Shown here: positions 10,517 to 49,431 of the stretch, one piece after another
Layout: each line of letters begins with the position of its first letter
Numbering within the stretch: position 1 is the first letter of the stretch
Assembly: GCA_965661985.1 (NCBI GenBank)
Contig: CBFIFY010000003.1
Coordinates: 29,207 to 93,206 of the forward strand
Origin: an uncultured Myxococcota bacterium
GTDB lineage: Bacteria; Myxococcota_A; UBA796
Length of the DNA stretch: 64,000 bases
Direction of reading: 5' to 3'
Translations under genes and position numbers: made by a program
Notes under the pieces: model-generated
Database searches by the model: none
Told to the model about the DNA's origin: nothing
Seen by the model: the letters and a program-made list of their open reading frames with translations, nothing else

Positions 10517-12578
10517 TCAATACCTCAGGCAATAAAGGAGATGGAGTCCCAACACAGGTCAGCCACAATTGATGCACAGCACGGGTTGCCGCAACGTGCA
10601 ATAGGCGTTGGTGGTGTGGGCTATCCGGATACGCAAAGGCATTGGCCTCTACGATGACGACATAATCAAATTCTAACCCCTTTACCTGGTCTACATCAAC
10701 CACATCGATTCCTGGTGCAAAGGCATAGTTCTGATCGACAACCAAACGAATGTAATCCAAGTCACATTTGGTTAGCCCATCGAAATAGGTTCTAGACAAT
10801 TCCAAAGACGGCGTGATCAGTGCAACATTGGCTCTGGGCTCGGCATCTTGAAGTCGACGCAACTCTTCTGCCAAGAAAGCGACGCACGCCCCGTGATCAC
10901 TGAACTGAAAGAACTCAACTGGTGGTCCCTCTTTGACTGTCAACGGTGCTGGTTCGTCTCGTTGTTCATCCTGCGTCAGCAATCGCATAGCAAAGTCGAC
11001 CACCTGCTTGGTTGAACGATAAGCCACTTGCAACGTGGACAACGCTGTTGATTGAACGCCAATCTGCGCCAGAAAGTCAGACCAAGAAGAGAAACCTGCC
11101 GACTTCGAAATGTGCTGGCGAGTGTCCCCCGCCAATGTCACACTTTGCTTGTCGTCACAGATGCCCAACAAAATCAAGATCTCCAACGGCGAGAAATCTT
11201 GAACCTCGTCGATGACCAAGTGCGCCAAAGCAATTTCGCGTCCACGTTCTCTGAGTTTCCCTACTCGAAGTTGATAGGCATACAGAAGCAAAGACACATC
11301 TTCCATATCCAAAAACGCTGGTTCATCATCTTCAAGCTGAGAGCCCTCATGCCAGATGGACATCAAGTCTGTTTGGCGGGCAATCCACCGCTCCGCTCGA
11401 TCGCGCATCGACATCGTCCAAACATCTTGCAGATCGTCTCGAATCTGAGAGAAATCTGTGAGAATGTGTGCCCAATCCTGATACACCTGATCAATATTTC
11501 TTGGCAAGTGTGGTGTGCTGGCGATGTGTTTACGCAGTCGACGCATGGTTGTGGGATGCAATTTGACACGTTGTACGGCGTCCGGAATCGGATCTACGGT
11601 AATGCTCGGCCAATGTGGAAAGTGTCTTTTGAACGTGGACTTCGCCCAAGATTTCCACGTTTGCACTGGCAACCCCACGACGCCCAACGGTGGCAACACG
11701 TGACCCACATAGTCTCGCATCGCCTTGCCCCACACCATGAACATCATATTTTGGGGTGCAAAATGCCGTGGGTTTTCAAAGGTCAAATAGGACAATCGAT
11801 GCAGTGCCACCGTCGTCTTTCCAGATCCCGCTGACCCTCGAATGACCATAATCCCCTCTTGTTCTGCAGAGATCAGTTCAAACTGGTCAGGATCAATCAA
11901 AGCAGCAATATCAGGCAAATGCTTACTCGACCGCAACTCTCCACCAGCACCCAACTGTGATGTGACTGGAGACCCCGCTCTCAAAGAAGCACCCTGTCCC
12001 CCTGCCAACTGCACTTGCTCTTTGGAAAGTTCTATCCAGTCATCTCCCCGTTTAACCCATGTCATAGAAGAATTGGACACCCTCACCAAACGGCTGTTGT
12101 TGATGTTGACAATGCGACGGGCGACGACCTCCCCTTCATGATTTTGTCCACCAAAGAACTCTTCGTACTCATCGCCTTCAGAATAGAGATAAAAAAGTTT
12201 GGAAATCGGTGCATTGCGCCAATCCACAATTTGCAGTCCATGCTTCAAATTGGTCGCCTTTCCCAAGTACACATCGCGTACACGCCCACGCTCTTTGAGT
12301 CGTAAATGAGCAAAGTACGGACAGGACGGATCCACTTCGGCTTGTCCCCGCAACGCTTTCATTGAATCCAATGAAGCGTTCAACTGATCCATTTGTGTAT
12401 ACAACACTGGCAAATCTTCTTCTTTGGCACCCAGCACATCTTCGCGTAAGACAATCAATTGATCAATGAGTTCTTGCTCTGCGTTGTCAAATCCGATTGG
12501 GTTCTCTTCTAAGATTCGTACAATTCGAGCCAACAAATCACTTTCTTCTTGTACGACGGGTGGAAGTTTACTTGTCAT
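10503..12578 (-). CDS. helD: HelD-like UvrD/Rep superfamily-1 helicase (RNA polymerase recycling ATPase type)
   Basis: N-terminal CPYFAHLRL...VYLGK...IVDWRNAPISKLFY is the HelD signature. Walker A is GSAGSGKTTVALHRLSYL, followed by LVIDEVQDFSP and C-terminal VKGLEFDYVVIV. Confidence 0.85.
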   Translation of the reverse strand: MTSKLPPVVQEESDLLARIVRILEENPIGFDNAEQELIDQLIVLREDVLGAKEEDLPVLYTQMDQLNASLDSMKALRGQAEVDPSCPYFAHLRLKERGRVRDVYLGKATNLKHGLQIVDWRNAPISKLFYLYSEGDEYEEFFGGQNHEGEVVARRIVNINNSRLVRVSNSSMTWVKRGDDWIELSKEQVQLAGGQGASLRAGSPVTSQLGAGGELRSSKHLPDIAALIDPDQFELISAEQEGIMVIRGSAGSGKTTVALHRLSYLTFENPRHFAPQNMMFMVWGKAMRDYVGHVLPPLGVVGLPVQTWKSWAKSTFKRHFPHWPSITVDPIPDAVQRVKLHPTTMRRLRKHIASTPHLPRNIDQVYQDWAHILTDFSQIRDDLQDVWTMSMRDRAERWIARQTDLMSIWHEGSQLEDDEPAFLDMEDVSLLLYAYQLRVGKLRERGREIALAHLVIDEVQDFSPLEILILLGICDDKQSVTLAGDTRQHISKSAGFSSWSDFLAQIGVQSTALSTLQVAYRSTKQVVDFAMRLLTQDEQRDEPAPLTVKEGPPVEFFQFSDHGACVAFLAEELRRLQDAEPRANVALITPSLELSRTYFDGLTKCDLDYIRLVVDQNYAFAPGIDVVDVDQVKGLEFDYVVIVEANAFAYPDSPHHQRLLHVAATRAVHQLWLTCVGTPSPLLPEVLSDVK

Positions 12579-37933: not shown

Positions 37934-38986
37934 TCAATGATCACAGCACTGATCATCCTGTTTGTGAGAATGACGCTGTTGATTCAATGACTTGTCCGCT
38001 GGATTCAAGATCTCTACAGTACAATGTGCCAACGCAACGGACTGACACAACGATTTTTTGTACTCAAGTGGAGACTGTGGGTCTTGCGCAAGAATAGACA
38101 CCACACAGCAGTGTCTGTCCAGTCCCATATCCCACAGATGTAGGTCAACGATTTCCACACCCTCGATGTGTGCGAAATGGTGACGAACCTTCTCCTCCAA
38201 CTCTCGATTTGGGAGTGCACTGAGAAGTACCCAACCAGTATCTTTGATAAGTTGAACCGACCATCGAACAATGATGATTCCCCCGACAACACCCATCAGT
38301 GGGTCCAATACCCACCAACCGAATTGCTGACCCAAAAACAAAGCAACGATGGCCAAAACAGATGTCAACGCATCGGCAACCACGTGTAGATAAGCCCCTC
38401 TCAGATTGTGGTCGTGACCAGCCTGCTCCACATCACCCTGCCCGTGACTGTGACCATGCCCGTGGCTGTGACCATGACCGTGATGCCCTGCCGAATCATC
38501 CTGACTGAGCAACCAAGCAGACAGTAAATTTACCACCAAACCAATGATCGCTACCCACATCGCCGTACCAAATTCGACCGATTCAGGCTCCAACATGTGG
38601 TGTACCGACTCTACGGCAACGAGCACACCTGCCACAAACAACGCAATAGCAGAAGCAAATCCTGTTAAAGCAAAGACTTTTCCAGTACCAAATGAAAAGC
38701 GGGGATCAGAATCATACTTTCGTGCAAAGGCATAGCCCAACAACGTGAGTCCCAATGCGCCAGCGTGAGAGGCCATATGCCACCCGTCAGCCGTCAGTGC
38801 CATAGACTTGGTCCACCACCCAACCAAAAGTTCGGCGACCATCGTCACCAGTGTCAACCACACCACCCAACGGGTTCGTGTCTCATTCCCCTCTAGGATT
38901 GGGGTGTCGTGTTGATGGCGCACTTGCAATATCTCAGGATTCGACTCCCGCTGAGAGTTGCCGTGAAAGTGGTGGTCATGGGGCAT
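37934..38986 (-). CDS. cation diffusion facilitator (CDF) divalent-metal exporter with His-rich loop
   Basis: Six TM segments, SMALTADGWHMASH, HVVADALTS and a cytoplasmic loop GHHGHGHSHGHGHSHGQGD. Its start overlaps the upstream gene stop by 11 nt. Confidence 0.88.
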   Translation of the reverse strand: MPHDHHFHGNSQRESNPEILQVRHQHDTPILEGNETRTRWVVWLTLVTMVAELLVGWWTKSMALTADGWHMASHAGALGLTLLGYAFARKYDSDPRFSFGTGKVFALTGFASAIALFVAGVLVAVESVHHMLEPESVEFGTAMWVAIIGLVVNLLSAWLLSQDDSAGHHGHGHSHGHGHSHGQGDVEQAGHDHNLRGAYLHVVADALTSVLAIVALFLGQQFGWWVLDPLMGVVGGIIIVRWSVQLIKDTGWVLLSALPNRELEEKVRHHFAHIEGVEIVDLHLWDMGLDRHCCVVSILAQDPQSPLEYKKSLCQSVALAHCTVEILNPADKSLNQQRHSHKQDDQCCDH

Positions 38987-40823
38987 CTGGCTCTTCTCCT
39001 TGCACGATGGTGTACCGTTGATTGCCAGTAAGTGTGTACTCTGTTTCTGTCAAATCAGCGTCTGGCCAACGAATGCGAACGATGGCCTCACAGGTCTCTC
39101 CCATTCCAAAGTGCAGGCGCAAATCATTTTGAGCACCGTAATGACCGAATCCACCACCCACTTCTTGAACCTGGATTCCATCGTCTGTTTCTACTTCAAC
39201 ACGGGCACCAATGGCCGAGTGGTTGCTGCCATTTTGTCCAACCAAATCCAGTTGTAAAAAGCCTCCCCCAAGTTGATTCTCATACAATCTGGCGTGAAAA
39301 GACTCTGGACAATCGTCATCGCATCGACCCGACGAGTGTCCAATCACCATGTCCAAATCCCCATCATTGTCAAAATCAGCCACCGCCGCTCCGTGTGAAC
39401 GATTGTGGTCAATGCCGATGTCCAAAGGCACTGCCTCAAACACTCGGGGAGCCGTTTGACGATAGAGCAAACCTCGTGTACCTGGATAGTCTGTAGAACC
39501 GATGTATACATCTTTCCAACCGTCGTTGTCGATGTCCAGCACAGCCGCGGTAATGTCTCCATCGTTCCAGTCTACAATGTCATATGTTCGAGTCAAACCT
39601 GTCGAGGCATTTCCCGGTCTATCCAATTCTACTGAACTCGATTGGGTATTGAACAGCAACTCACTTGCGTCGGAAGAACCACCCACATCCCAGTGTACAA
39701 TCTCGGTCGTCAGCAAGTCCAACCACCCATCATTGTCAATGTCTGAACAAACTGTGGTTCCTGAGTTTCCACCCAAACGAAAGGCATTTCTATCTTGACC
39801 GTGGTTCCATCGAAAAGCATCGTCATCGCTGTTGCAGCGAATCAACGATGGCTCTGGCACACCTGCACATTCATCGTCCGTTGGATGCAACATACACCAA
39901 CACCGTGCCGATTCGTTGTCGGTCCAATCTTGATTTTCATCAAAGGCATAGCCCGAAGCAATACTTTGGTTGCTGTATTGACTGCCTTCTGATTGCCACA
40001 AATGATTGGGGGCACGACCGTAGGACGCCGACAACAATTCCATATCCCCGTCGTTGTTTAGGTCACAGGAATGAACAGACCAACTGACGGAGTGTCCCTG
40101 TGCTCGGTTCAAAGGCGCAATACTGGTCCAATTTTGCGTTTTCAGCCCCACGTCTTCTGTCACATCGGTAAACACCCCCGTTCCATCACCTAGAAGAAGA
40201 CGATCTTGCTCAGCATTGGCCTGACCCAACCACAAGTCTACGACACCATCACGATTCACGTCTACGAAACTTGCCCCAGCAGTTTGAGCGACTGTGGTTG
40301 AACGAACCCCTGAGTCTTCACTCCCCAAAGAAAATGTTCCATCCCCATTGTTGAGAACAATCTCAGAAGTTTCCACGCTGTCACCGGAAAAGTTGTGCCC
40401 CGTGTACAAATCCAAGTCTCCATCGTTGTCAATGTCTGCGAATGCAACGACTTGCCCAGGCCTACCAGTGTCCAAGGTTCGCGCTTGTCGAATCCCCGAT
40501 GCTTCTGTGACATCTTCAAAAGCACCAGCCCCTGTATTTCGAAGCAACCACGAGTTGCGATTGCCCTCTGCAAAATTGTCTCCATTGTCATTTTTTCGAA
40601 TGAACAAATCGGTCCAGCCATCCCCATCATAATCCACTGCAGAAATCCGTGTTCCGGTCGCATTGATTGATTCAAGCCCCCACTCTACGGTCCGATCAAC
40701 ATATACCGTCGCCTCTCCATCATAGGATGTGGTCACCCCTTCACAATCTGGTGACTTTTCTTTACAGCCAGTGCCCATCCCAACGAACAAACCCATAACG
40801 CCTAGCAAATTGCCTTGTCTCAT
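38976..40823 (-). CDS. CRTAC1-family lipoprotein (FG-GAP/VCBS repeats + ASPIC/UnbV C-terminal domain)
   Basis: Lipobox GMGTGC. Repeated D.DnDGd.D. motifs (DYDGDGWTDL, DIDNDGDLDL, DLNNDGDMEL, DIDNDGWLDL, DIDNDGWKDV, DFDNDGDLDM). C-terminal NHSAIGARVEV...HFGMGE...IRWPD. ATG 40823 was chosen over GTG 40838. Confidence 0.85.
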   Translation of the reverse strand: MRQGNLLGVMGLFVGMGTGCKEKSPDCEGVTTSYDGEATVYVDRTVEWGLESINATGTRISAVDYDGDGWTDLFIRKNDNGDNFAEGNRNSWLLRNTGAGAFEDVTEASGIRQARTLDTGRPGQVVAFADIDNDGDLDLYTGHNFSGDSVETSEIVLNNGDGTFSLGSEDSGVRSTTVAQTAGASFVDVNRDGVVDLWLGQANAEQDRLLLGDGTGVFTDVTEDVGLKTQNWTSIAPLNRAQGHSVSWSVHSCDLNNDGDMELLSASYGRAPNHLWQSEGSQYSNQSIASGYAFDENQDWTDNESARCWCMLHPTDDECAGVPEPSLIRCNSDDDAFRWNHGQDRNAFRLGGNSGTTVCSDIDNDGWLDLLTTEIVHWDVGGSSDASELLFNTQSSSVELDRPGNASTGLTRTYDIVDWNDGDITAAVLDIDNDGWKDVYIGSTDYPGTRGLLYRQTAPRVFEAVPLDIGIDHNRSHGAAVADFDNDGDLDMVIGHSSGRCDDDCPESFHARLYENQLGGGFLQLDLVGQNGSNHSAIGARVEVETDDGIQVQEVGGGFGHYGAQNDLRLHFGMGETCEAIVRIRWPDADLTETEYTLTGNQRYTIVQGEEPDAP

Positions 40824-40911
40824 CTGTACAACTCCCACAAATTGGTTATGAGCAGTCTATATCTCCCAATTCCCTTTCTGTAAATCTTCCCAAACCCTCT
40901 CCCTCTTTTCA

Positions 40912-43412: not shown

Positions 43413-44141
43413 ATGGATCGCCCACACAATGTGCCAAAATTACTCATCAAACTCATGCACCAGCAAAATCAGCTCTGCCCACTCACGACCGACGTTGTTC
43501 GAGTCGGCCGAAGTGAAGAGTGCGAAGTCATCTTGCCCAACGCTTCTGTGTCTCGCATTCACGCCACCATCACCAAAGAAGGTGACCGCTTCGTCATCCG
43601 AGACAACGATTCTCAAAACGGTTTTCGCATCAACGGCGAGGCATCCAAAGAACACACATTGAGTTCCGGTGATGAAATCCACTTGGGGGTATTCTCACTG
43701 GTCTTTTTAAGTGATCGATTGGAAGACAACTATTACCGTGGTCGTTCGGTCACCTATTTGCCCATCTACAATCCAAAAATCATTGAAAGCAGTGATGACT
43801 CAACCTTCGCCATGTCCACGCGGGACAAAAACTTGTTGGCTCGCAAGTCCAGTCTGCTCTATCACGGATGCATCATGAGCAAGGATGGGCGCTACTTCTA
43901 TCCCGAAGAAAATCCGCTGACCTTTGGAAAGAATGCCGTCATTTCCATCGATCACTGGTGGGTATTTGGTGTGGTCGCAGAGATCGTATGGGCCGACAAA
44001 GCTCACGTCATCAACAAACTGTCTTGGTTCTGCCCCGTCAAAGTCAACGGCAACAACGTCGATCGTGCTTTGTTGAAAGCGGGAGACAAAATTCAAATTG
44101 GCAACAATCATTTTGGGTATACCATACGCCAAGATTACTAA
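43413..44141 (+). CDS. FHA domain-containing protein
   Basis: ATG 43413 has GGAGA 7 nt upstream. VVRVGRSEECEVILPNASVSRIHATITKEGDRFVIRDNDSQNGFRINGE is a canonical FHA core. The C-terminal VKVNGNNVDRALLKAGDKIQIGNNHFGY suggests a second, degenerate FHA-like module. Confidence 0.8.
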   Translation: MDRPHNVPKLLIKLMHQQNQLCPLTTDVVRVGRSEECEVILPNASVSRIHATITKEGDRFVIRDNDSQNGFRINGEASKEHTLSSGDEIHLGVFSLVFLSDRLEDNYYRGRSVTYLPIYNPKIIESSDDSTFAMSTRDKNLLARKSSLLYHGCIMSKDGRYFYPEENPLTFGKNAVISIDHWWVFGVVAEIVWADKAHVINKLSWFCPVKVNGNNVDRALLKAGDKIQIGNNHFGYTIRQDY

Positions 44142-44202
44142 AAGTTGATTTGCGGTGCTGTCTTCTTTGGCTTCCCTTGTCTAGAAACGCTCGGATACTA
44201 GA

Positions 44203-44588
44203 GTATACCTCGCGTTTATATCCTTCGGGCATCCTTTGAATCCATCATCCACTCTCAACTTTGAAAATACGAAATTGTTGTGGGTTGCTGGGTGACTTGG
44301 GTGTTTGTTAGGCTGTTGGAAGTTGACTGGCGTTGAGGGTGACTTTGATGTTTGCGAGTGTGTCGGTATTTGGTTGGATATAGCAGTTTGTGTTTGTATA
44401 CCTCGCGTTTATATCCTTCGGGTATCCTTTGAATCCATCATCCACTCTCATCATTGAAACTACGAGATTGTTGTGGTGTGCTGGGTGACTTGGGTGCTTG
44501 TTTGTATCGGGGCTTGGGTCGAGGCAGGCGTTTTTGGTGACTTGGTTGTTGTCTAGTGTGTTGGCAGAGGGGTAGATGTAGCAGTTTG
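44203..44588 (+). repeat. two tandem ~193-bp non-coding repeat units (44203-44395, 44396-44588)
   Basis: The first ~106 nt of each unit differ at 8 positions by my count. The distal ~87 nt are more diverged but still alignable. Lies in the convergent intergenic region between the FHA and Rpn genes. Confidence 0.85.
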
Positions 44589-44791
44589 TTGTATCGATTG
44601 TTTGTCAATCAAAAGCATTGTAGAAGGCTATCAGGTTTATTGGATGGGCTTTGGTATCCAAGTGAAGTGTACAATCGTACACGAATCTGGAGAACGAAGG
44701 TCAGTCGATGAAACGGATAGCCCTTCGGCTGTGAGATTGGTATACACAGGATGGTCTCTCAATGGTTTGGAGAGGTCGGCGAGGTGTCTAT

Positions 44792-45835
44792 TTATTTTTG
44801 AACGGGGGCGGATCGAAGTTTGCCGACTTCATCTACACTCAAGCCTGTTGCTTGTGCGGTTTGTTCGTCAGAGAGTCCCATTTTGATGAGATTTTGCGCA
44901 GTTTTGATGTTGGCTTGTATCGTGCCTTCTTCTCTTCCTCTTTCGATACCCTGCTGGATACCTTCTTCTTGCCACTGTTTGATTAAATCGATCATGTTGT
45001 TCTCCGTTCTTAATTTATTGTCTAGCATTTTTGAAATGGGTTCGTTTCCTTTGTAGGTTTGGATGATGTAGAGATACATCGAGAGTAGGGTATCTCCGGA
45101 TTCTTGTCTCAACAGTATGAACTGTTCGTCAACCAGCAATCGGTCATAGAAGGACGAATGTCTGGAATATTTGAAATACTCGGCAAACTTGGCTAGCAGA
45201 AACGACTGTTGGTACTGTCTTTGAATCTCGGCATCATCGGTTTGTGAGAGGTCTCGCAAGTGGAAAGACAGTTGGGGAGAATATTGGGAACATCCCACAG
45301 GCACGTTAATCAAAGCCTGTAGGGACGTTGGGGATTTCCAAGCTTCGATGCCATTGAAGAGCACCAATGGAAACACAAAGGGCAGTTTGTCGGGAAATTT
45401 TCCGTTGTGGATGGTTTTGATGTAGTTTGAATACCATAAGTATAGATACTCGTAGAACCTCCATGCCATCGAGTGAACATCTGTCGATTGATGCTCGAAC
45501 ATAAAGTAGACATACATTTTCTCTGAGGATTTGAGTTTCAGTGACAGAAGAATGTCGGCGCGTTTCTCGTTGACCATTGGAGAGCCGAGATTGGTGGGTT
45601 CGTAGGTCAGAGAGTCCCATTTGATATTTTCGACCAGTGCTTGGGGTATTTCAGCCTGTAGATAGGCGGTGATGACCTTGGGCTTCTCCATCATGTACTT
45701 GAAAATCACATCGTGAGAGGTTTTGCCTTTGGACATTTCATCGAGAAACATTTTGTGTAGGCGTTCAAAGGTGCGTTTTTGCTCTTGTAGTCGTTTGGTC
45801 TTGTCTGGTCCTAAATTGTCTGATTCATCGCTCAT
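44792..45835 (-). CDS. Rpn-family recombination-promoting nuclease / putative transposase (PD-(D/E)XK, YhgA-like)
   Basis: The N-terminal block HDVIFKYMM...RADILLSLKL...VYFMFEHQS fits the D...E.Q nuclease core pattern. The C-terminal EEGIQQGIERGREEGTIQANIKTAQNLIKMGLSDEQTAQATGLSVDEV repeat is typical of this family. Confidence 0.8.
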   Translation of the reverse strand: MSDESDNLGPDKTKRLQEQKRTFERLHKMFLDEMSKGKTSHDVIFKYMMEKPKVITAYLQAEIPQALVENIKWDSLTYEPTNLGSPMVNEKRADILLSLKLKSSEKMYVYFMFEHQSTDVHSMAWRFYEYLYLWYSNYIKTIHNGKFPDKLPFVFPLVLFNGIEAWKSPTSLQALINVPVGCSQYSPQLSFHLRDLSQTDDAEIQRQYQQSFLLAKFAEYFKYSRHSSFYDRLLVDEQFILLRQESGDTLLSMYLYIIQTYKGNEPISKMLDNKLRTENNMIDLIKQWQEEGIQQGIERGREEGTIQANIKTAQNLIKMGLSDEQTAQATGLSVDEVGKLRSAPVQK

Positions 45836-46190: not shown

Positions 46191-47657
46191 ATGTTGTCGA
46201 TTTTACTCACACTCACCGGTTGCATCAGTATAGACCCACCTGAGAACCCATTGGCCATCGACGATGACCGAGACGGTTACACCGAGTTTGAAGGGGACTG
46301 TAATGATCAAGACCCAAACACCTTCCCAGGTTCGGTGACGGAGGCGACATCGAATGAGTGTATGAAAGACGATGACGGTGATGGGTTTGGTGATGTGGAT
46401 GTGTCTGGGTACTTCGATGTGGGTACGGATTGCGATGACTCGAATCGGTTTATCTTTCCGGGTGCTGCAGAGAATGAGTCGGACAGTGAATGTTTGACCG
46501 ATGAAGATGAAGATGGTTGGATTGCAGAGTTAGGTGATTGTGACGATGGTGATGCTAGTACTGTTGATGACATGGATTGTGATGGTGTGTTGAGTGTGGA
46601 TGATTGTGACGATGGTGATTCGAGTATGCCGAACAATGATAATGATTGTGATGGTGTGTTGAGCGTAGATGATTGTGACGATGGTGATGCGAGTACGATT
46701 GATGACATGGATTGTGATGGTGTGTTGAGTGTAGATGATTGTGATGATGATGATTCAAGTTTATTGGAACAATCAAATGACTTGGATTGTGATGGTGTGT
46801 TGAGTGTGGATGATTGTGACGATGGTGATGCTAGTACTGTTTATGACATGGACTGTGATGGAGTATTGAGTGTAGATGATTGTGATGATGGTGATCCTCT
46901 TGTCATGGATCTTTGTATTGATATTGGAAGTCTGTCTTTTGAGGCGATGTTAATTTCAGCTGGTACCTTTACGATGGGTTGTACAAGTGAGCAGGGAACC
47001 AATTGCTACTCAAATGAGAGTCCGACACATCAAGTTACCTTGACTCAAAATTTTTATATGATGCAGACTGAAGTTACACAAGGGGTTTATGCACAAGTGA
47101 TGGGTAGTAATCCAAGTTCATTTTCTGGTTCGAACCGACCGGTTGAAAGTGTTTCTTGGTTGGATGCTATTCAATTTGCAAATGAATTGAGTGTTCAGCA
47201 AGGACTGTCTGAATGTTATGTTTTGAATGGAACCAACGTAAGTTGGTCGCAAACTGGTTGTACAGGCTGGAGGTTGCCAACAGAGGCAGAGTGGGAGTAT
47301 GCTGCAAGAGGTGGAGAAGTGTTTCAATACCCAGGAAGTAACAATCCCAGTGACGTTGCGTGGTACAACTCCAATAGTGGTTCTCAAACACACAATGTGT
47401 GTGTTTTACAGACCAACGGCTATGGTCTTTGCGATATGAGTGGTAATGTTTCGGAGTGGGTTTGGGATATTGCTGGATTGTATAGTGGTGCATCACTTGT
47501 AGATCCGAGAGGTGCATCGAGTGGTTGTTGCCGAGTATTAAGAGGTGCTGGTTATAATCGACCTGTAGATCATATGAGAGTTTCAAAGCGTGGAAACACT
47601 AGTGGATCGAATATTGCTTCTTATAGAGGTTTTCGTCTTTGTCGTAATCCCAACTAA
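46191..47657 (+). CDS. lipoprotein with tandem Asp/Cys-rich (MopE-like metal-binding) repeats and C-terminal FGE/SUMF1-fold domain
   Basis: Lipobox LTLTGC. Five units of DCDGVLSVDDCDDGDAST.DDM. The C-terminal blocks FTMGCT, PTHQVTL, SWLDAIQFAN, RLPTEAEWEYAARGG, GNVSEWVWD and RVLRGAGY, and the terminal FRLCRN, are FGE-sulfatase family blocks. Confidence 0.85.
   Translation: MLSILLTLTGCISIDPPENPLAIDDDRDGYTEFEGDCNDQDPNTFPGSVTEATSNECMKDDDGDGFGDVDVSGYFDVGTDCDDSNRFIFPGAAENESDSECLTDEDEDGWIAELGDCDDGDASTVDDMDCDGVLSVDDCDDGDSSMPNNDNDCDGVLSVDDCDDGDASTIDDMDCDGVLSVDDCDDDDSSLLEQSNDLDCDGVLSVDDCDDGDASTVYDMDCDGVLSVDDCDDGDPLVMDLCIDIGSLSFEAMLISAGTFTMGCTSEQGTNCYSNESPTHQVTLTQNFYMMQTEVTQGVYAQVMGSNPSSFSGSNRPVESVSWLDAIQFANELSVQQGLSECYVLNGTNVSWSQTGCTGWRLPTEAEWEYAARGGEVFQYPGSNNPSDVAWYNSNSGSQTHNVCVLQTNGYGLCDMSGNVSEWVWDIAGLYSGASLVDPRGASSGCCRVLRGAGYNRPVDHMRVSKRGNTSGSNIASYRGFRLCRNPN
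46536..46895 (+). repeat. in-frame tandem coding repeats (~66-75 bp units, about 5 copies)
   Basis: The protein reads DCDDGDASTVDDM-DCDGVLSVD-DCDDGDSSMPNNDN-DCDGVLSVD-DCDDGDASTIDDM-DCDGVLSVD-DCDDDDSSLLEQSNDL-DCDGVLSVD-DCDDGDASTVYDM-DCDGVLSVD-DCDDGD. The nucleotide units are near-identical. Confidence 0.9.
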
Positions 47658-47802: not shown

Positions 47803-47884
47803 GTATAGGTCTCTTTCATATCATCCACTCTCATCATTGAAACTACGAGGTTGTTGGATGTTGCTGGGTGACTTGGGTGTGTTC
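47803..47884 (+). repeat. third, truncated copy of the 44.2-kb repeat core
   Basis: ATCATCCACTCTCATCATTGAAACTACGAG.TTGTTG......TGCTGGGTGACTTGGGTG is shared with 44444-44500. Same orientation, again in a convergent intergenic region. Confidence 0.8.
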
Positions 47885-47904: not shown

Positions 47905-49431
47905 TTAGTCGCCCGCCAGTTCACATCGATCGCCAACATCATCTCCATCGGCGTCGCTCTGGTAATCTTCAAAGATGCCAGTGTGGACAGGAGACAAAAT
48001 GAGGTCGGTGATCGGCTCCCCATTTTCTGTGAGGCGAAAGAACATGCCCCATCCACCACCGTTGTCGTGTACTTGGGTGAGGATGTAATTCCAACCGGCG
48101 TCGAGATTGGATGGGAAAGTGTATTTGTCTACACTGGCGCCTTGACAGGTTTGAGATTCTCCCACAAATGTGCCGTTGACCCAGACTCGACCTGCGTCGT
48201 CCGGACCAAACTTTACATCGACGCTTCGAGCATTGTCGCTGTAAACCCAGATGCCGGCAAACACGTTGCGCGCAGGAGAGAGGTCTTTGATTCCGATAAT
48301 TGTGTTGTAATCAATTCGACTGCCACCACTTTCATAGAGAGACCAATAAACGGTGTCTTCATTGTAATTGAGCAAGGTGTTGTACAGGGATGGAATGATG
48401 CTGGTTTCTGTGATTTCGTAGATGTTGTCGACGGTTTGACAGTTGCCTGTTTGTAGAGCGTTGACATTGTGGCCATCGGTCAGCACCCACGTTCGAAAGA
48501 AGCCGTCTTCATCGGGAGCGAATTCGATAGGACCGTTGTTGCTGTGCAACGGACAGTTGTCTTCTTCATCAATCAGTCCATCGTCATCATCGTCTTCGTC
48601 GCAGTTGTTGGCAAATGTGTCGCCGTCAACATCTTCGGTTTCGGTTAAGATTGGGTCTATCAAACTGCAACTGTCTGGCTGAATTTCCCATTCAAGGGTG
48701 TACTCTTCTACGGCTGTGCCGAATAGTCCCTGAAGGCAAAAGGTGGTTTCTGTCTCTGTGCTACTGGTCAAATATCGGGCACTGCTGTCGTTGATGGGTT
48801 CAATTGTGGGGCAACTGTCGTCGATGGGTAGATCGGACGCGACTTCAACTCCGTCTTCCAAAATGCTGATTCGCATGAGGTGAGAGCAAATTTCTTGGTC
48901 TGGGTTGACGGTGAATTCAATGTATTCATTCTCTTCAAAATCAAAGGTGTAGCAGTCTGTGTCTTGCTCCCACAACATCCCTCGAAGTGACCCACTGTCA
49001 GCCAACACCGTTGCCGTCAGATTGCTGTCGTTTGGTTCCATTTCAAACGTGCCATCTTCAACAGCGCAATCTTCGTCGCAACCATCAACGTTCCAGAGAT
49101 TGCTGTCGTCGCATTCCTCTGTGGAATCGAGTATGCCATCCCCACATTTGGGCAACAAACAGTCTGTGCGACAGGCATCTGCGACATTGGCGTTGTTCTC
49201 ACCGTCATCGCACTCTTCAAAGGGAGCGTTGACGATACCGTCTCCACATTCACCGACGATGTCCTCTGTGGGCTCAGCAGTATCTTCGCTTCCAGTATCC
49301 TCAGTGGCATCTGAAGTATCCGTGGTCACCGTGTCATTTTCTACATTGTCTTCTTTGGTATCACCACATGCACTGCTGAGTGAGAGCAGTAGGCTGAGTG
49401 CTGTCAAATTCATCCAAACAGGGGAAGCCAT
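47905..49431 (-). CDS. mosaic exported protein: two myxobacterial Cys-rich repeats, PPC-like domain, TSP3-like Asp repeats, C-terminal beta-sandwich
   Basis: Lipobox LSLSSAC. CGDGIVNAPFEECDDG and CGDGILDSTEECDD, then EMEPNDSNLTA (PPC-type), then DVDGDTFANNCDEDDDDDGLIDEEDNCP and DADGDDVGDRC. An alternative ATG at 49413 would form an ATGA overlap with the DUF1501 stop. Confidence 0.7.
   Translation of the reverse strand: MASPVWMNLTALSLLLSLSSACGDTKEDNVENDTVTTDTSDATEDTGSEDTAEPTEDIVGECGDGIVNAPFEECDDGENNANVADACRTDCLLPKCGDGILDSTEECDDSNLWNVDGCDEDCAVEDGTFEMEPNDSNLTATVLADSGSLRGMLWEQDTDCYTFDFEENEYIEFTVNPDQEICSHLMRISILEDGVEVASDLPIDDSCPTIEPINDSSARYLTSSTETETTFCLQGLFGTAVEEYTLEWEIQPDSCSLIDPILTETEDVDGDTFANNCDEDDDDDGLIDEEDNCPLHSNNGPIEFAPDEDGFFRTWVLTDGHNVNALQTGNCQTVDNIYEITETSIIPSLYNTLLNYNEDTVYWSLYESGGSRIDYNTIIGIKDLSPARNVFAGIWVYSDNARSVDVKFGPDDAGRVWVNGTFVGESQTCQGASVDKYTFPSNLDAGWNYILTQVHDNGGGWGMFFRLTENGEPITDLILSPVHTGIFEDYQSDADGDDVGDRCELAGD

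Follow-up and report, generated by a model that had tools for sequence, protein, structure and literature searches.

Several families of interspersed repeats are known in bacterial genomes, BIME among them (PMC3184786). The ERIC (or IRU) elements of the Enterobacteriaceae are intergenic elements of ~127 bp which are classed as miniature inverted-repeat transposable elements (MITEs), are co-transcribed and affect mRNA decay, while the BOX elements of Streptococcus pneumoniae, built as boxA-boxB(n)-boxC, are tandem modular, non-autonomous elements that are transcribed and have a predicted RNA structure (PMC3184786). Correia elements form a family of hairpin repeats that are co-transcribed and can provide adjacent genes with signals, and SPRITE elements lie at the 3' ends of genes that converge (PMC3184786). 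The DNA described here, referred to as the window, is a stretch of 64,000 nt (29,207-93,206, + strand) of contig CBFIFY010000003.1 from an uncultured Myxococcota bacterium (assembly GCA_965661985.1). With moderate confidence, we read positions 44139-44791 of this window as an ERIC/BOX-like mosaic array that belongs to an intergenic repeat family specific to its lineage and is probably co-transcribed as a structure of the 3' untranslated region (3' UTR). The reading is directly supported by the anatomy of the array, the covariation of its hairpin, its distribution over several loci, differences in presence and absence, and its anchoring at stop codons.

The first-pass annotation of this DNA had described two direct tandem units of 193 bp, at 44203-44395 and 44396-44588, with no obvious terminator hairpin. 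The two units are present and are 79% identical over 194 nt when compared whole. The statement on the hairpin, however, is mistaken, since a hairpin of ~125 nt straddles 44203, the left boundary given to the first unit. The array consists of the following parts:

44139-44266, both strands: H1, a long palindromic hairpin of ~125 nt, defined by its minimum free energy (MFE) fold, by an alignment of nine copies and by R1, the covariance model built from that alignment.
44263-44316, + strand: linker 1, with an 18-mer at 44286-44303.
44317-44462, + strand: a second, decayed hairpin module, with a degenerate G/T-rich 5' arm and a well-kept 3' arm (44396-44455).
44463-44617, + strand: linker 2, with the 18-mer at 44479-44496, and a third, orphan G/T-rich tail that resembles a 5' arm and has no 3' arm.
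44618-44731, + strand: the rod, a second type of long hairpin with the apex GTGTAC-AATC-GTACAC, defined by its fold and by homology to a related locus (L039).
44754-44791, + strand: a small hairpin (GGTCTCTC...GAGAGGTC) and the T-rich end of the non-coding region, read from the sequence.

The start of H1 coincides with the stop codon of the gene upstream, which encodes a protein with an FHA domain. The R1 match starts at 44139, and the TAA stop (44139-44141) provides the first three bases of the element. The paired region, 44141-44262, is made of 62 nt counted from the FHA stop codon and the first 60 nt of unit 1, and is divided into a 5' arm (44141-44198), an apex loop TAGA (44199-44202) and a 3' arm (44203-44262), after which an invariant GAAA follows. 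Unit 1 starts at the first base after the apex loop, which is the first base of the 3' arm; the 193-bp register is therefore arbitrary, and the natural module is the palindromic hairpin with its linker. The leader of ~60 nt between the stop codon and unit 1 is common to FHA and prfA loci. In the window, the foot of H1 is AAAGTTGA/TCAACTTT and the apex is GGATAC-TAGA-GTATACC. The MFE structure is a single hairpin on either strand (-30.6 kcal/mol and z -2.4 on the + strand, -41.0 kcal/mol and z -5.2 on the - strand), and R1 scores it at 139.4 bits. The H1 copy of a related FHA locus (L046) also folds on both strands, at -74.0 and -73.5 kcal/mol.

The folding and covariation analysis that the first-pass annotation had proposed was run on nine H1 copies from three gene contexts, and the pairing proves to be conserved. 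RNAalifold predicts for them a single long hairpin with 39 pairs, of which 23 show compensatory double changes. With this structure held fixed, 91.1% of the cells pair, as against 73.0% in column shuffles and 35-46% when the partners are slid by 1-3 columns, and the covariation score (0.472 vs 0.166) is reached by none of 500 shuffles. Blocks of the arms are replaced wholesale between copies with complementarity retained, while the 5' foot invariably has TAAA, the 3' foot TTGAAA and the apex TCG..TAC-loop-GTA. Since the apex and base motifs do not vary, a boundary element or a protein-binding element is possible. The copies have 30-38 of their 39 pairs in Watson-Crick form, with 13 G.U pairs and 7 A.C mismatches. 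Although the covariation is very strong, H1 pairs to the same extent on both strands, which would suit a DNA palindrome as well; by its Watson-Crick pairing, H1 is better described as a palindrome than as an RNA fold of one strand.

R1 recovers ten intact copies of H1, with scores of 109-139 bits, behind four genes: the FHA gene, prfA, a gene of 195 aa and a further, unnamed gene. The copy behind the last of these, at locus L062, lies outside the alignment and scores 120.8 bits. All ten copies begin 0-2 nt after a stop codon. Seven of them have the T of the upstream gene's TAA stop as their first R1 base; for the remaining three, the stop of the gene (TGA or TAA) and a single C come before that base. 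The left junction always reads T(A/G)A, then 0-1 nt, then TAAA(A/G)G, and in every array the linker and tails are distal to the upstream gene.

The relatives of the array were found in two ways. When one genome per species (185,579 genomes) is scanned with the linker 18-mer, 39 matches are obtained, of which 37 are chance (19-39 nt) and two are real. Both real matches are in the metagenome-assembled genome (MAG) 'uncultured Myxococcota bacterium Co_bin_45_indstr' (Co_bin_45), one at the orthologous FHA locus (L010) and the other at the prfA locus (L039). The first-pass annotation had reckoned with a core that might be found nowhere else, but these two loci place it outside the window as well. 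Further arrays were reached through FHA and prfA homologues in marine metagenome assemblies, one of them from Tara and the others with marine-looking sample names; L046 and L052 are FHA loci, L053, L054 and L055 are prfA loci, L053 carries its second array behind the 195-aa gene, and L062 belongs to this set too. On these sequences, the family appears to be confined to a narrow clade of uncultured marine Myxococcota. The number of units varies; the window has two, and L010, which is 77% identical to it in nucleotides over 2.9 kb, has at least three in tandem.

The sequence type of H1 tracks the genome and not the locus. The H1 copy behind the FHA gene of the window is 86% identical to that behind prfA in L054 and only 67% identical to that behind the FHA gene of L010, though the FHA proteins are 97% identical. 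Similarly, the FHA and prfA copies of a single MAG (L010 and L039) are 80% identical, those of L052 (FHA) and L055 (prfA) are 88% identical, and the two H1 copies of L053 are mutual best matches. Presence varies as well: the FHA locus is empty in the more distant relatives L047-L050, and the locus of the 195-aa gene has an array in L053 and none in L039 or L054. None of the downstream genes of L010, L046 and L047 is found in the window, so that synteny breaks off at the array and sets no right-hand boundary for the arrays. The empty FHA sites L047 and L049 are too diverged for comparison at the level of single bases. Thirteen of the 15 short-read contigs that carry these FHA or prfA genes end 28-384 nt past the stop codon, and contig ends inside an array are the usual signature of a multi-copy repeat. 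Single sources hold two sites (the 64-kb window), two loci (Co_bin_45) and two arrays within 4 kb (L053).

Two further sites deserve description in their own right. In L047 (858-884), which has no array, the FHA stop, a small hairpin (AGTCCCTAA-N8-TTAGAGACT) and a convergent stop follow one another, which may be the ancestral state of the site. In L057 (3711-4039), a more distant relative in which prfA is 78% identical, the 323-nt spacer between prfA and a convergent gene for pterin-4a-carbinolamine dehydratase is closed by a 19-bp inverted repeat, TAACCCCAGTTCGGGATAC ... GTATCCTGAACTGGGGTTA, which touches both stop codons and has a 5' end like the apex motif of H1. Four short-read contigs with prfA of the L057 type break 28-67 nt after the stop.

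The main rival explanation is that the array is a host-evolved, two-way insulator or terminator module and not a mobile repeat. H1 would then be under selection on both strands to halt or process transcripts that arrive from one side or the other, and the C/A-rich, G-poor minus-strand RNA would act as a Rho-loading (rut-like) tract that blocks antisense or convergent transcription into the upstream gene. The Watson-Crick pairing of H1, its folding on both strands and its position exactly at stop codons, often between convergent genes, agree with such a module, as do the A-rich 5' and CTTT 3' sequences that flank the hairpin base and the composition of the minus-strand transcript, which would be ~70% C+A. 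The small hairpin of L047, read from the printed sequence, is at the same place, and the inverted repeat of L057 sits similarly on both convergent stops. However, H1 is followed by GAAA(A/C/T)T and not by the U-tract of an intrinsic terminator, no U-tract follows it on either strand, and stems of 60 bp are unlike those of intrinsic terminators. Terminator scans find nothing at H1 and give inconsistent counts over the arrays, with 0 sites in L053 and L046. The arrays of L046, L053-prfA and L062 precede a co-directional, not a convergent, gene, and a local terminator leaves both the genome-tracking H1 type and the contig breaks unexplained. We consider an insulator of this kind unlikely.

The genes around the two repeat sites of the window and the fragment at the second site are:

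43413-44141, + strand: gene for the FHA-domain protein, 242 aa (Pfam FHA, E=3.7e-20; 100% identical to P0001 over 242 aa).
44792-45835, - strand: gene for a YhgA/Rpn-like PD-(D/E)XK protein, 'Transposase_31' (Pfam PF04754, E=3.1e-28), convergent with the array.
46191-47657, + strand: gene for an FGE-sulfatase lipoprotein.
47819-47881, + strand: solo fragment (copy 3), found by nhmmer and comprising the final ~20 nt of a 3' arm together with the linker and, at 47862-47879, the 18-mer.
47905-49431, - strand: DUF4215 gene.

Since the flanking pairs are FHA (+) with YhgA/Rpn-like (-) and FGE-sulfatase (+) with DUF4215 (-), both repeat sites are convergent intergenic DNA, and the 3'-to-3' setting claimed by the first-pass annotation is correct at each. 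So is its third copy of the core: the 60-nt core occurs at 44244, 44437 and 47820 with 90% identity. The solo fragment matches positions 41-103 of the unit-head profile (E=7e-14) and is located 162 nt past the FGE-sulfatase stop; a further 24 nt separate it from the stop of the convergent DUF4215 gene. A hairpin at copy 3 was considered and set aside, as z is -0.2 and -0.5 on the two strands, which is not significant, and R1 has no match there.

The direct core copies flank a 3.3-kb segment that holds the YhgA/Rpn-like and FGE-sulfatase genes and is missing from the orthologous L010; the segment may be an insertion or a recombination product. Because one of its genes is a 'transposase' by name, because synteny breaks at the array, and because an imperfect palindrome of ~125 nt right after a stop codon is reminiscent of chromosomal attC sites, the copies could be thought of as remnants of att-like or integron attC-like recombination sites, or as scars left when the Rpn-FGE segment was inserted between direct repeats. 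The bases of the foot, however, covary freely (AAAGTTGA, AAGGCTGA, AAGGATGA, AAGGGAGAG), which leaves no fixed core site of the GTTRRRY/RYYYAAC type, and the upstream genes are housekeeping genes (prfA, beside a gene with a Rho RNA-binding domain) and not cassettes. No integrase is called in any array-carrying locus or lies near any array; the one exception, an unrelated XerC-like gene at a distance of 1.5 kb, is in L049, which lacks an array. The YhgA/Rpn-like gene is absent beside the arrays of L010, L039, L046, L053 and L062 and accompanies the array of the window only, and a link between this gene and the repeat was dropped. The att-like origin suggested in the first-pass annotation thus lacks support as a site-specific recombination site, with attC core motifs not conserved, and we hold recombination remnants of any of these kinds to be highly improbable.

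Within the units, conservation is uneven. The heads (44203-44309 and 44396-44502), spaced by 193, share 93% identity over 107 nt, while the tails are roughly 65% identical. Tandem Repeats Finder does not report the array, because the distal halves are too diverged. The exact 18-mer, TGCTGGGTGACTTGGGTG, occurs three times in the window, once in each copy, against an expectation of 0.09, and none of 100 shuffles reaches three; by eye, it looks like the first stretch of the 5' arm (GGTGACTTGGGTG vs GTTGATTTGCGGTG). Between the window and L010, the head is 94% identical (80/85 positions, counted on printed sequences), as against 77% for the aligned stretch including the flanking genes. The unit head is thus conserved well above the local background. 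The first-pass annotation had taken the exact 18-mer as a sign of selection, but the 18-mer is exact only in the closest genomes (the window, Co_bin_45 and, nearly, L055), is replaced in L046, L053 and L054, and so is not a family-wide functional core.

The same contrast between head and tail, seen both inside the window and against L010, would be expected if the units were tandem small RNA genes, each 193-bp unit being its own transcription unit and the 106-nt head the small RNA. Weak stem-plus-T-run sites in some tails and the UUCG-type loops that recur in the units also point this way. But the head is simply the 3' arm of the palindrome with its linker, the structure of the head and 18-mer is no better than that of shuffles (z about 0), and the 18-mer changes in L046, L053 and L054. 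Promoter-like sites in the units are at or below the shuffled expectation in a scan, no sigma-70, sigma-54 or sigma-32 pattern is seen by eye, and no sigma-70-like promoter occurs in any unit. Rfam, at gathering score, has no match in the window or in six related loci; at E<=10, the region 44100-44800 gives chance-level hits only (CRISPR-DR16 at 14.8 bits, and PART1_3). Neither a promoter nor a consistent terminator of its own, nor a known Rfam family, which would mark an independent small RNA gene, was found for the array. Small RNA genes, which the first-pass annotation had proposed, are very unlikely.

The palindrome-plus-linker organisation of the repeat extends beyond H1. R1 has a full-length match at 44317-44462 (37.1 bits, E=3e-6), on the + strand only, so that unit 1 ends in a degenerate 5' arm whose 3' partner is the head of unit 2, and the repeat consists of modules [5' arm - apex - 3' arm], each with a linker of ~55 nt, at a period of 193. 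Of the 39 pairs of the second module, 23 are Watson-Crick, 6 are G.U and 10 are mismatched. The third G/T-rich tail spans 44510-44617 and contains a weak terminator-like stem (44512-44529) followed by GTTTTTGG. On the array strand, G+T reaches 67-72%, compared with 49 +/- 6.5% for the window. Two further candidates were rejected: a riboswitch-like alternative hairpin of the 3' arm with the downstream 18-mer is no better than shuffles (z -1.5 to +1.8), and the shared 3'-terminal motif GTCTATTTAT has one other occurrence, which is compatible with chance.

The rod is 87% identical to positions 7200-7344 of L039, even though that is a non-orthologous prfA locus. The same apex (GAAGTGTAC-N4-GTACACGAA) is carried by different arms in L046, and a comparable rod with a variant apex is present in L062. 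In the window, the rod folds on the + strand at -51 kcal/mol with z -3.8, as against z -1.0 on the - strand; on the array and opposite strands, respectively, z is -6.6 and -5.8 in L039, -5.9 and -3.6 in L046, and -8.9 and -1.8 in L062. This predicted strand preference is the only feature that argues specifically for a + strand RNA. The small hairpin at 44754-44791, which abuts the stop codon of the convergent gene, is not conserved at the other loci compared.

Open reading frames (ORFs) have been called over arrays on the C/A-rich minus strand, at 10766-11440 (-) of L046 (224 aa) and at 11205-11708 (-) of L053 (167 aa), and 683-1333 of L062 also carries a public call over its array; all these calls are of 167-224 aa (P0147-P0150). 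The first-pass annotation had seen no credible ORF, which agrees with the lack of a conserved ORF in the array, and it had named one outcome that would make the copies decaying gene fragments, namely a relative in which the homologous sequence is a protein-coding gene. The calls, and the presence of four ORFs of this sort in a set of 1.84 billion representative proteins, could be taken in that sense, as traces of a protein-coding or repeat-protein gene. But the ORFs are of low complexity with no Pfam domain on record, the L046 ORF starts at TTG, the minus-strand frame of the window is broken by stops and shifts between units because 193 is not a multiple of 3, and the variation preserves the palindrome and is not synonymous. 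Since the C/A-rich strand is simply stop-poor, the calls are artefacts that will contaminate protein databases. The L046 ORF being spurious, the copies are not decaying gene fragments, an origin that we find scarcely credible.

A word-indexed protein search with the open minus-strand frame gives no match, and HMMER against the 1.84 billion representative proteins gives six, of which two are unrelated repeat proteins and four are the real array ORFs; that there are only four among so many representatives means that the family is rare in public data. A metagenome scan for ATCCACTCTCA-N25-35-GCTGGGTGAC gives two matches, both in unrelated DNA without further similarity to the element, and blastn of the array against plasmids and phages gives none. 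A limited literature search turned up no dispersed palindromic repeats of this sort in myxobacteria. The novel non-coding repeat family proposed in the first-pass annotation is thus real and is described in no database searched.

Other stretches of the window that are G/T- or C/A-skewed or strongly folding (23.9-24.3 kb and 14.6 kb) were discarded as candidates, both being coding. The only other strongly G+T-skewed stretch, 46527-46895, consists of ~5.4 tandem copies of a 66-nt (22-codon) repeat, which show a super-period of 141 nt; it is located inside the FGE-sulfatase lipoprotein gene and codes for Asp/Cys/Gly-rich, DxDxDG-like repeats. At 38435-38483, an 18-nt tandem repeat of 2.7 copies (ACCATGCCCGTGACTGTG) is part of a 350-aa minus-strand ORF, 37934-38986, just upstream of an FG-GAP/ASPIC gene (38976-40838).

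The layout and history of the family may be pictured as follows. The basic module is the ~125-nt palindrome H1 followed by a linker of ~55 nt. The first module is intact and starts at the upstream gene's stop codon, whereas later modules are tandem copies in which the 3' arm and linker are kept and the 5' arm has decayed to G/T-rich sequence; a rod can come after them. Copies would spread and homogenise within a genome by copy-and-paste, either by trans-mobilisation of the MITE/ERIC type or by gene conversion and unequal recombination between arrays. Like a MITE, H1 is a palindrome over its whole length, is <500 bp and has no coding capacity. Joint change of both arms could be due to template switching at quasipalindromes, a process that has been described (PMC7202029); since template switching makes two-sided Watson-Crick changes in one step, it fits the scarcity of wobble intermediates. 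As the arrays follow directly after a stop codon and point away from the upstream gene, they are most likely co-transcribed as its 3' UTR. The hairpins may then act as a structure at the mRNA 3' end, that is, as an exonuclease barrier, as a processing site, or by interference with the termination of translation or transcription, effects of kinds that have been documented for ERIC, REP, BOX and SPRITE elements. This is a proposal that we infer, like the mobility itself, from strict stop-codon anchoring, fixed orientation and the strand preference of the rod in the one case and from the distribution of copies in the other.

Several observations weigh against this picture. G.U and A.C counts are similar and the window's H1 folds better on the minus strand, so that H1 gives no evidence for a + strand RNA role, and a role at the DNA level or on two strands fits H1 equally well. 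An internal hairpin selected as RNA in the second module (H2) was rejected, since in the window its stability does not exceed that of shuffled sequence (z +0.25 and +0.18). Neither a transposase nor a target-site duplication nor a clean pair of empty and filled sites was identified at the loci compared, and mobility is therefore putative. Copy number is judged by where contigs break and by the 1-3 sites present in 8-64 kb of sequence, and the conservation of the 3' arm and linker over the tails is unexplained by a purely selfish element.

A bolder interpretation, which we think quite unlikely, is that the array is not just a tolerated selfish repeat but a functional, stop-codon-anchored 3'-UTR device of the clade, or else a new kind of mobile element that targets the position after the stop. 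If the former were true, a 60-bp hairpin with the stop codon in its foot would couple translation termination to the fate of the mRNA, by ribosome stalling or rescue, by processing of the RNase III type or by release of small RNA from the rods. As a separate observation, L053 has a 143-aa gene with an RF-1 domain (11995-12426), possibly ArfB-like, downstream of its prfA array; in that locus a stop-codon-anchored array separates a release factor gene and the gene for a possible ribosome-rescue factor.

Taken as a repeat family, the array accounts for the breaks in short-read assemblies right after genes such as prfA in marine Myxococcota and for the spurious low-complexity ORF calls there, and R1 can be used to mask or annotate its members. 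With it, a family of dispersed palindromic repeats becomes known in a clade of marine Myxococcota. Its most unusual features are the anchoring at stop codons, in four gene contexts, and a 125-nt palindrome that is kept through wholesale replacement of sequence. It offers a natural system for asking how long palindromes persist, by template switching or by selection, and whether hairpins close to the 3' end modulate termination or decay.

Among the known systems, ERIC is closest in form. The sizes are nearly equal, the whole element is one long imperfect hairpin, the position is intergenic, and presence and copy number vary between relatives; ERIC elements are typically co-transcribed at gene 3' ends, as H1 arrays probably are. 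Unlike ERIC, H1 occurs in tandem arrays with decayed internal copies and is anchored at a stop codon, and no TA flanks or target duplication are seen. There is no sequence similarity, as blastn of the 653-nt region against 5,426 E. coli genomes gives no match, and the hosts, which are Myxococcota MAGs, belong to a different phylum. BOX, too, is a mosaic of modules in which the internal ones are repeated in tandem a variable number of times. Its modules measure about 45-60 nt, whereas the module here is a ~125-nt palindrome with a linker of ~55 nt; no sequence relation exists between the two, and no candidate insertion sequence that might mobilise the array was identified.

REP and BIME elements of E. 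coli and Pseudomonas are similar in having palindromic units in mosaic clusters with a bias towards convergent intergenic DNA, and they affect mRNA stability; Liang, Rudd and Deutscher reportedly found in 2015 that REPs within about 15 nt of a stop lower the expression of the upstream gene via ribosome stalling. The stems of REPs, however, are short (about 20-40 nt) and rich in G+C, their orientation alternates within BIMEs, and RAYT transposases are associated with them, while H1 has 60-bp stems of 40-48% G+C (arms of ~60 nt, 39-48% G+C) and all modules are in direct orientation only. Correia-type repeats differ in that H1 has no terminator-type U-tract after it, no promoter or IHF-site evidence and no TA duplication. 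The attC sites of chromosomal integrons (for example, the Vibrio cholerae repeats of ~120-126 bp) are imperfect palindromes whose structure is conserved more than their sequence; H1, at ~125 nt and directly after a stop codon, resembles them in both respects. It departs from them in the foot, where core motifs are not conserved and positions covary (AU:5/GC:3, UA:6/CG/AU/GC and so on), in its upstream genes, which include prfA and FHA genes, and in having several palindromes without genes between them. Since no sequence relation to these families was found and several features specific to one or another of them are lacking, the array is best assigned to a new family of the known kind of interspersed palindromic and mosaic repeats and to no named family; it is not a new class of system.

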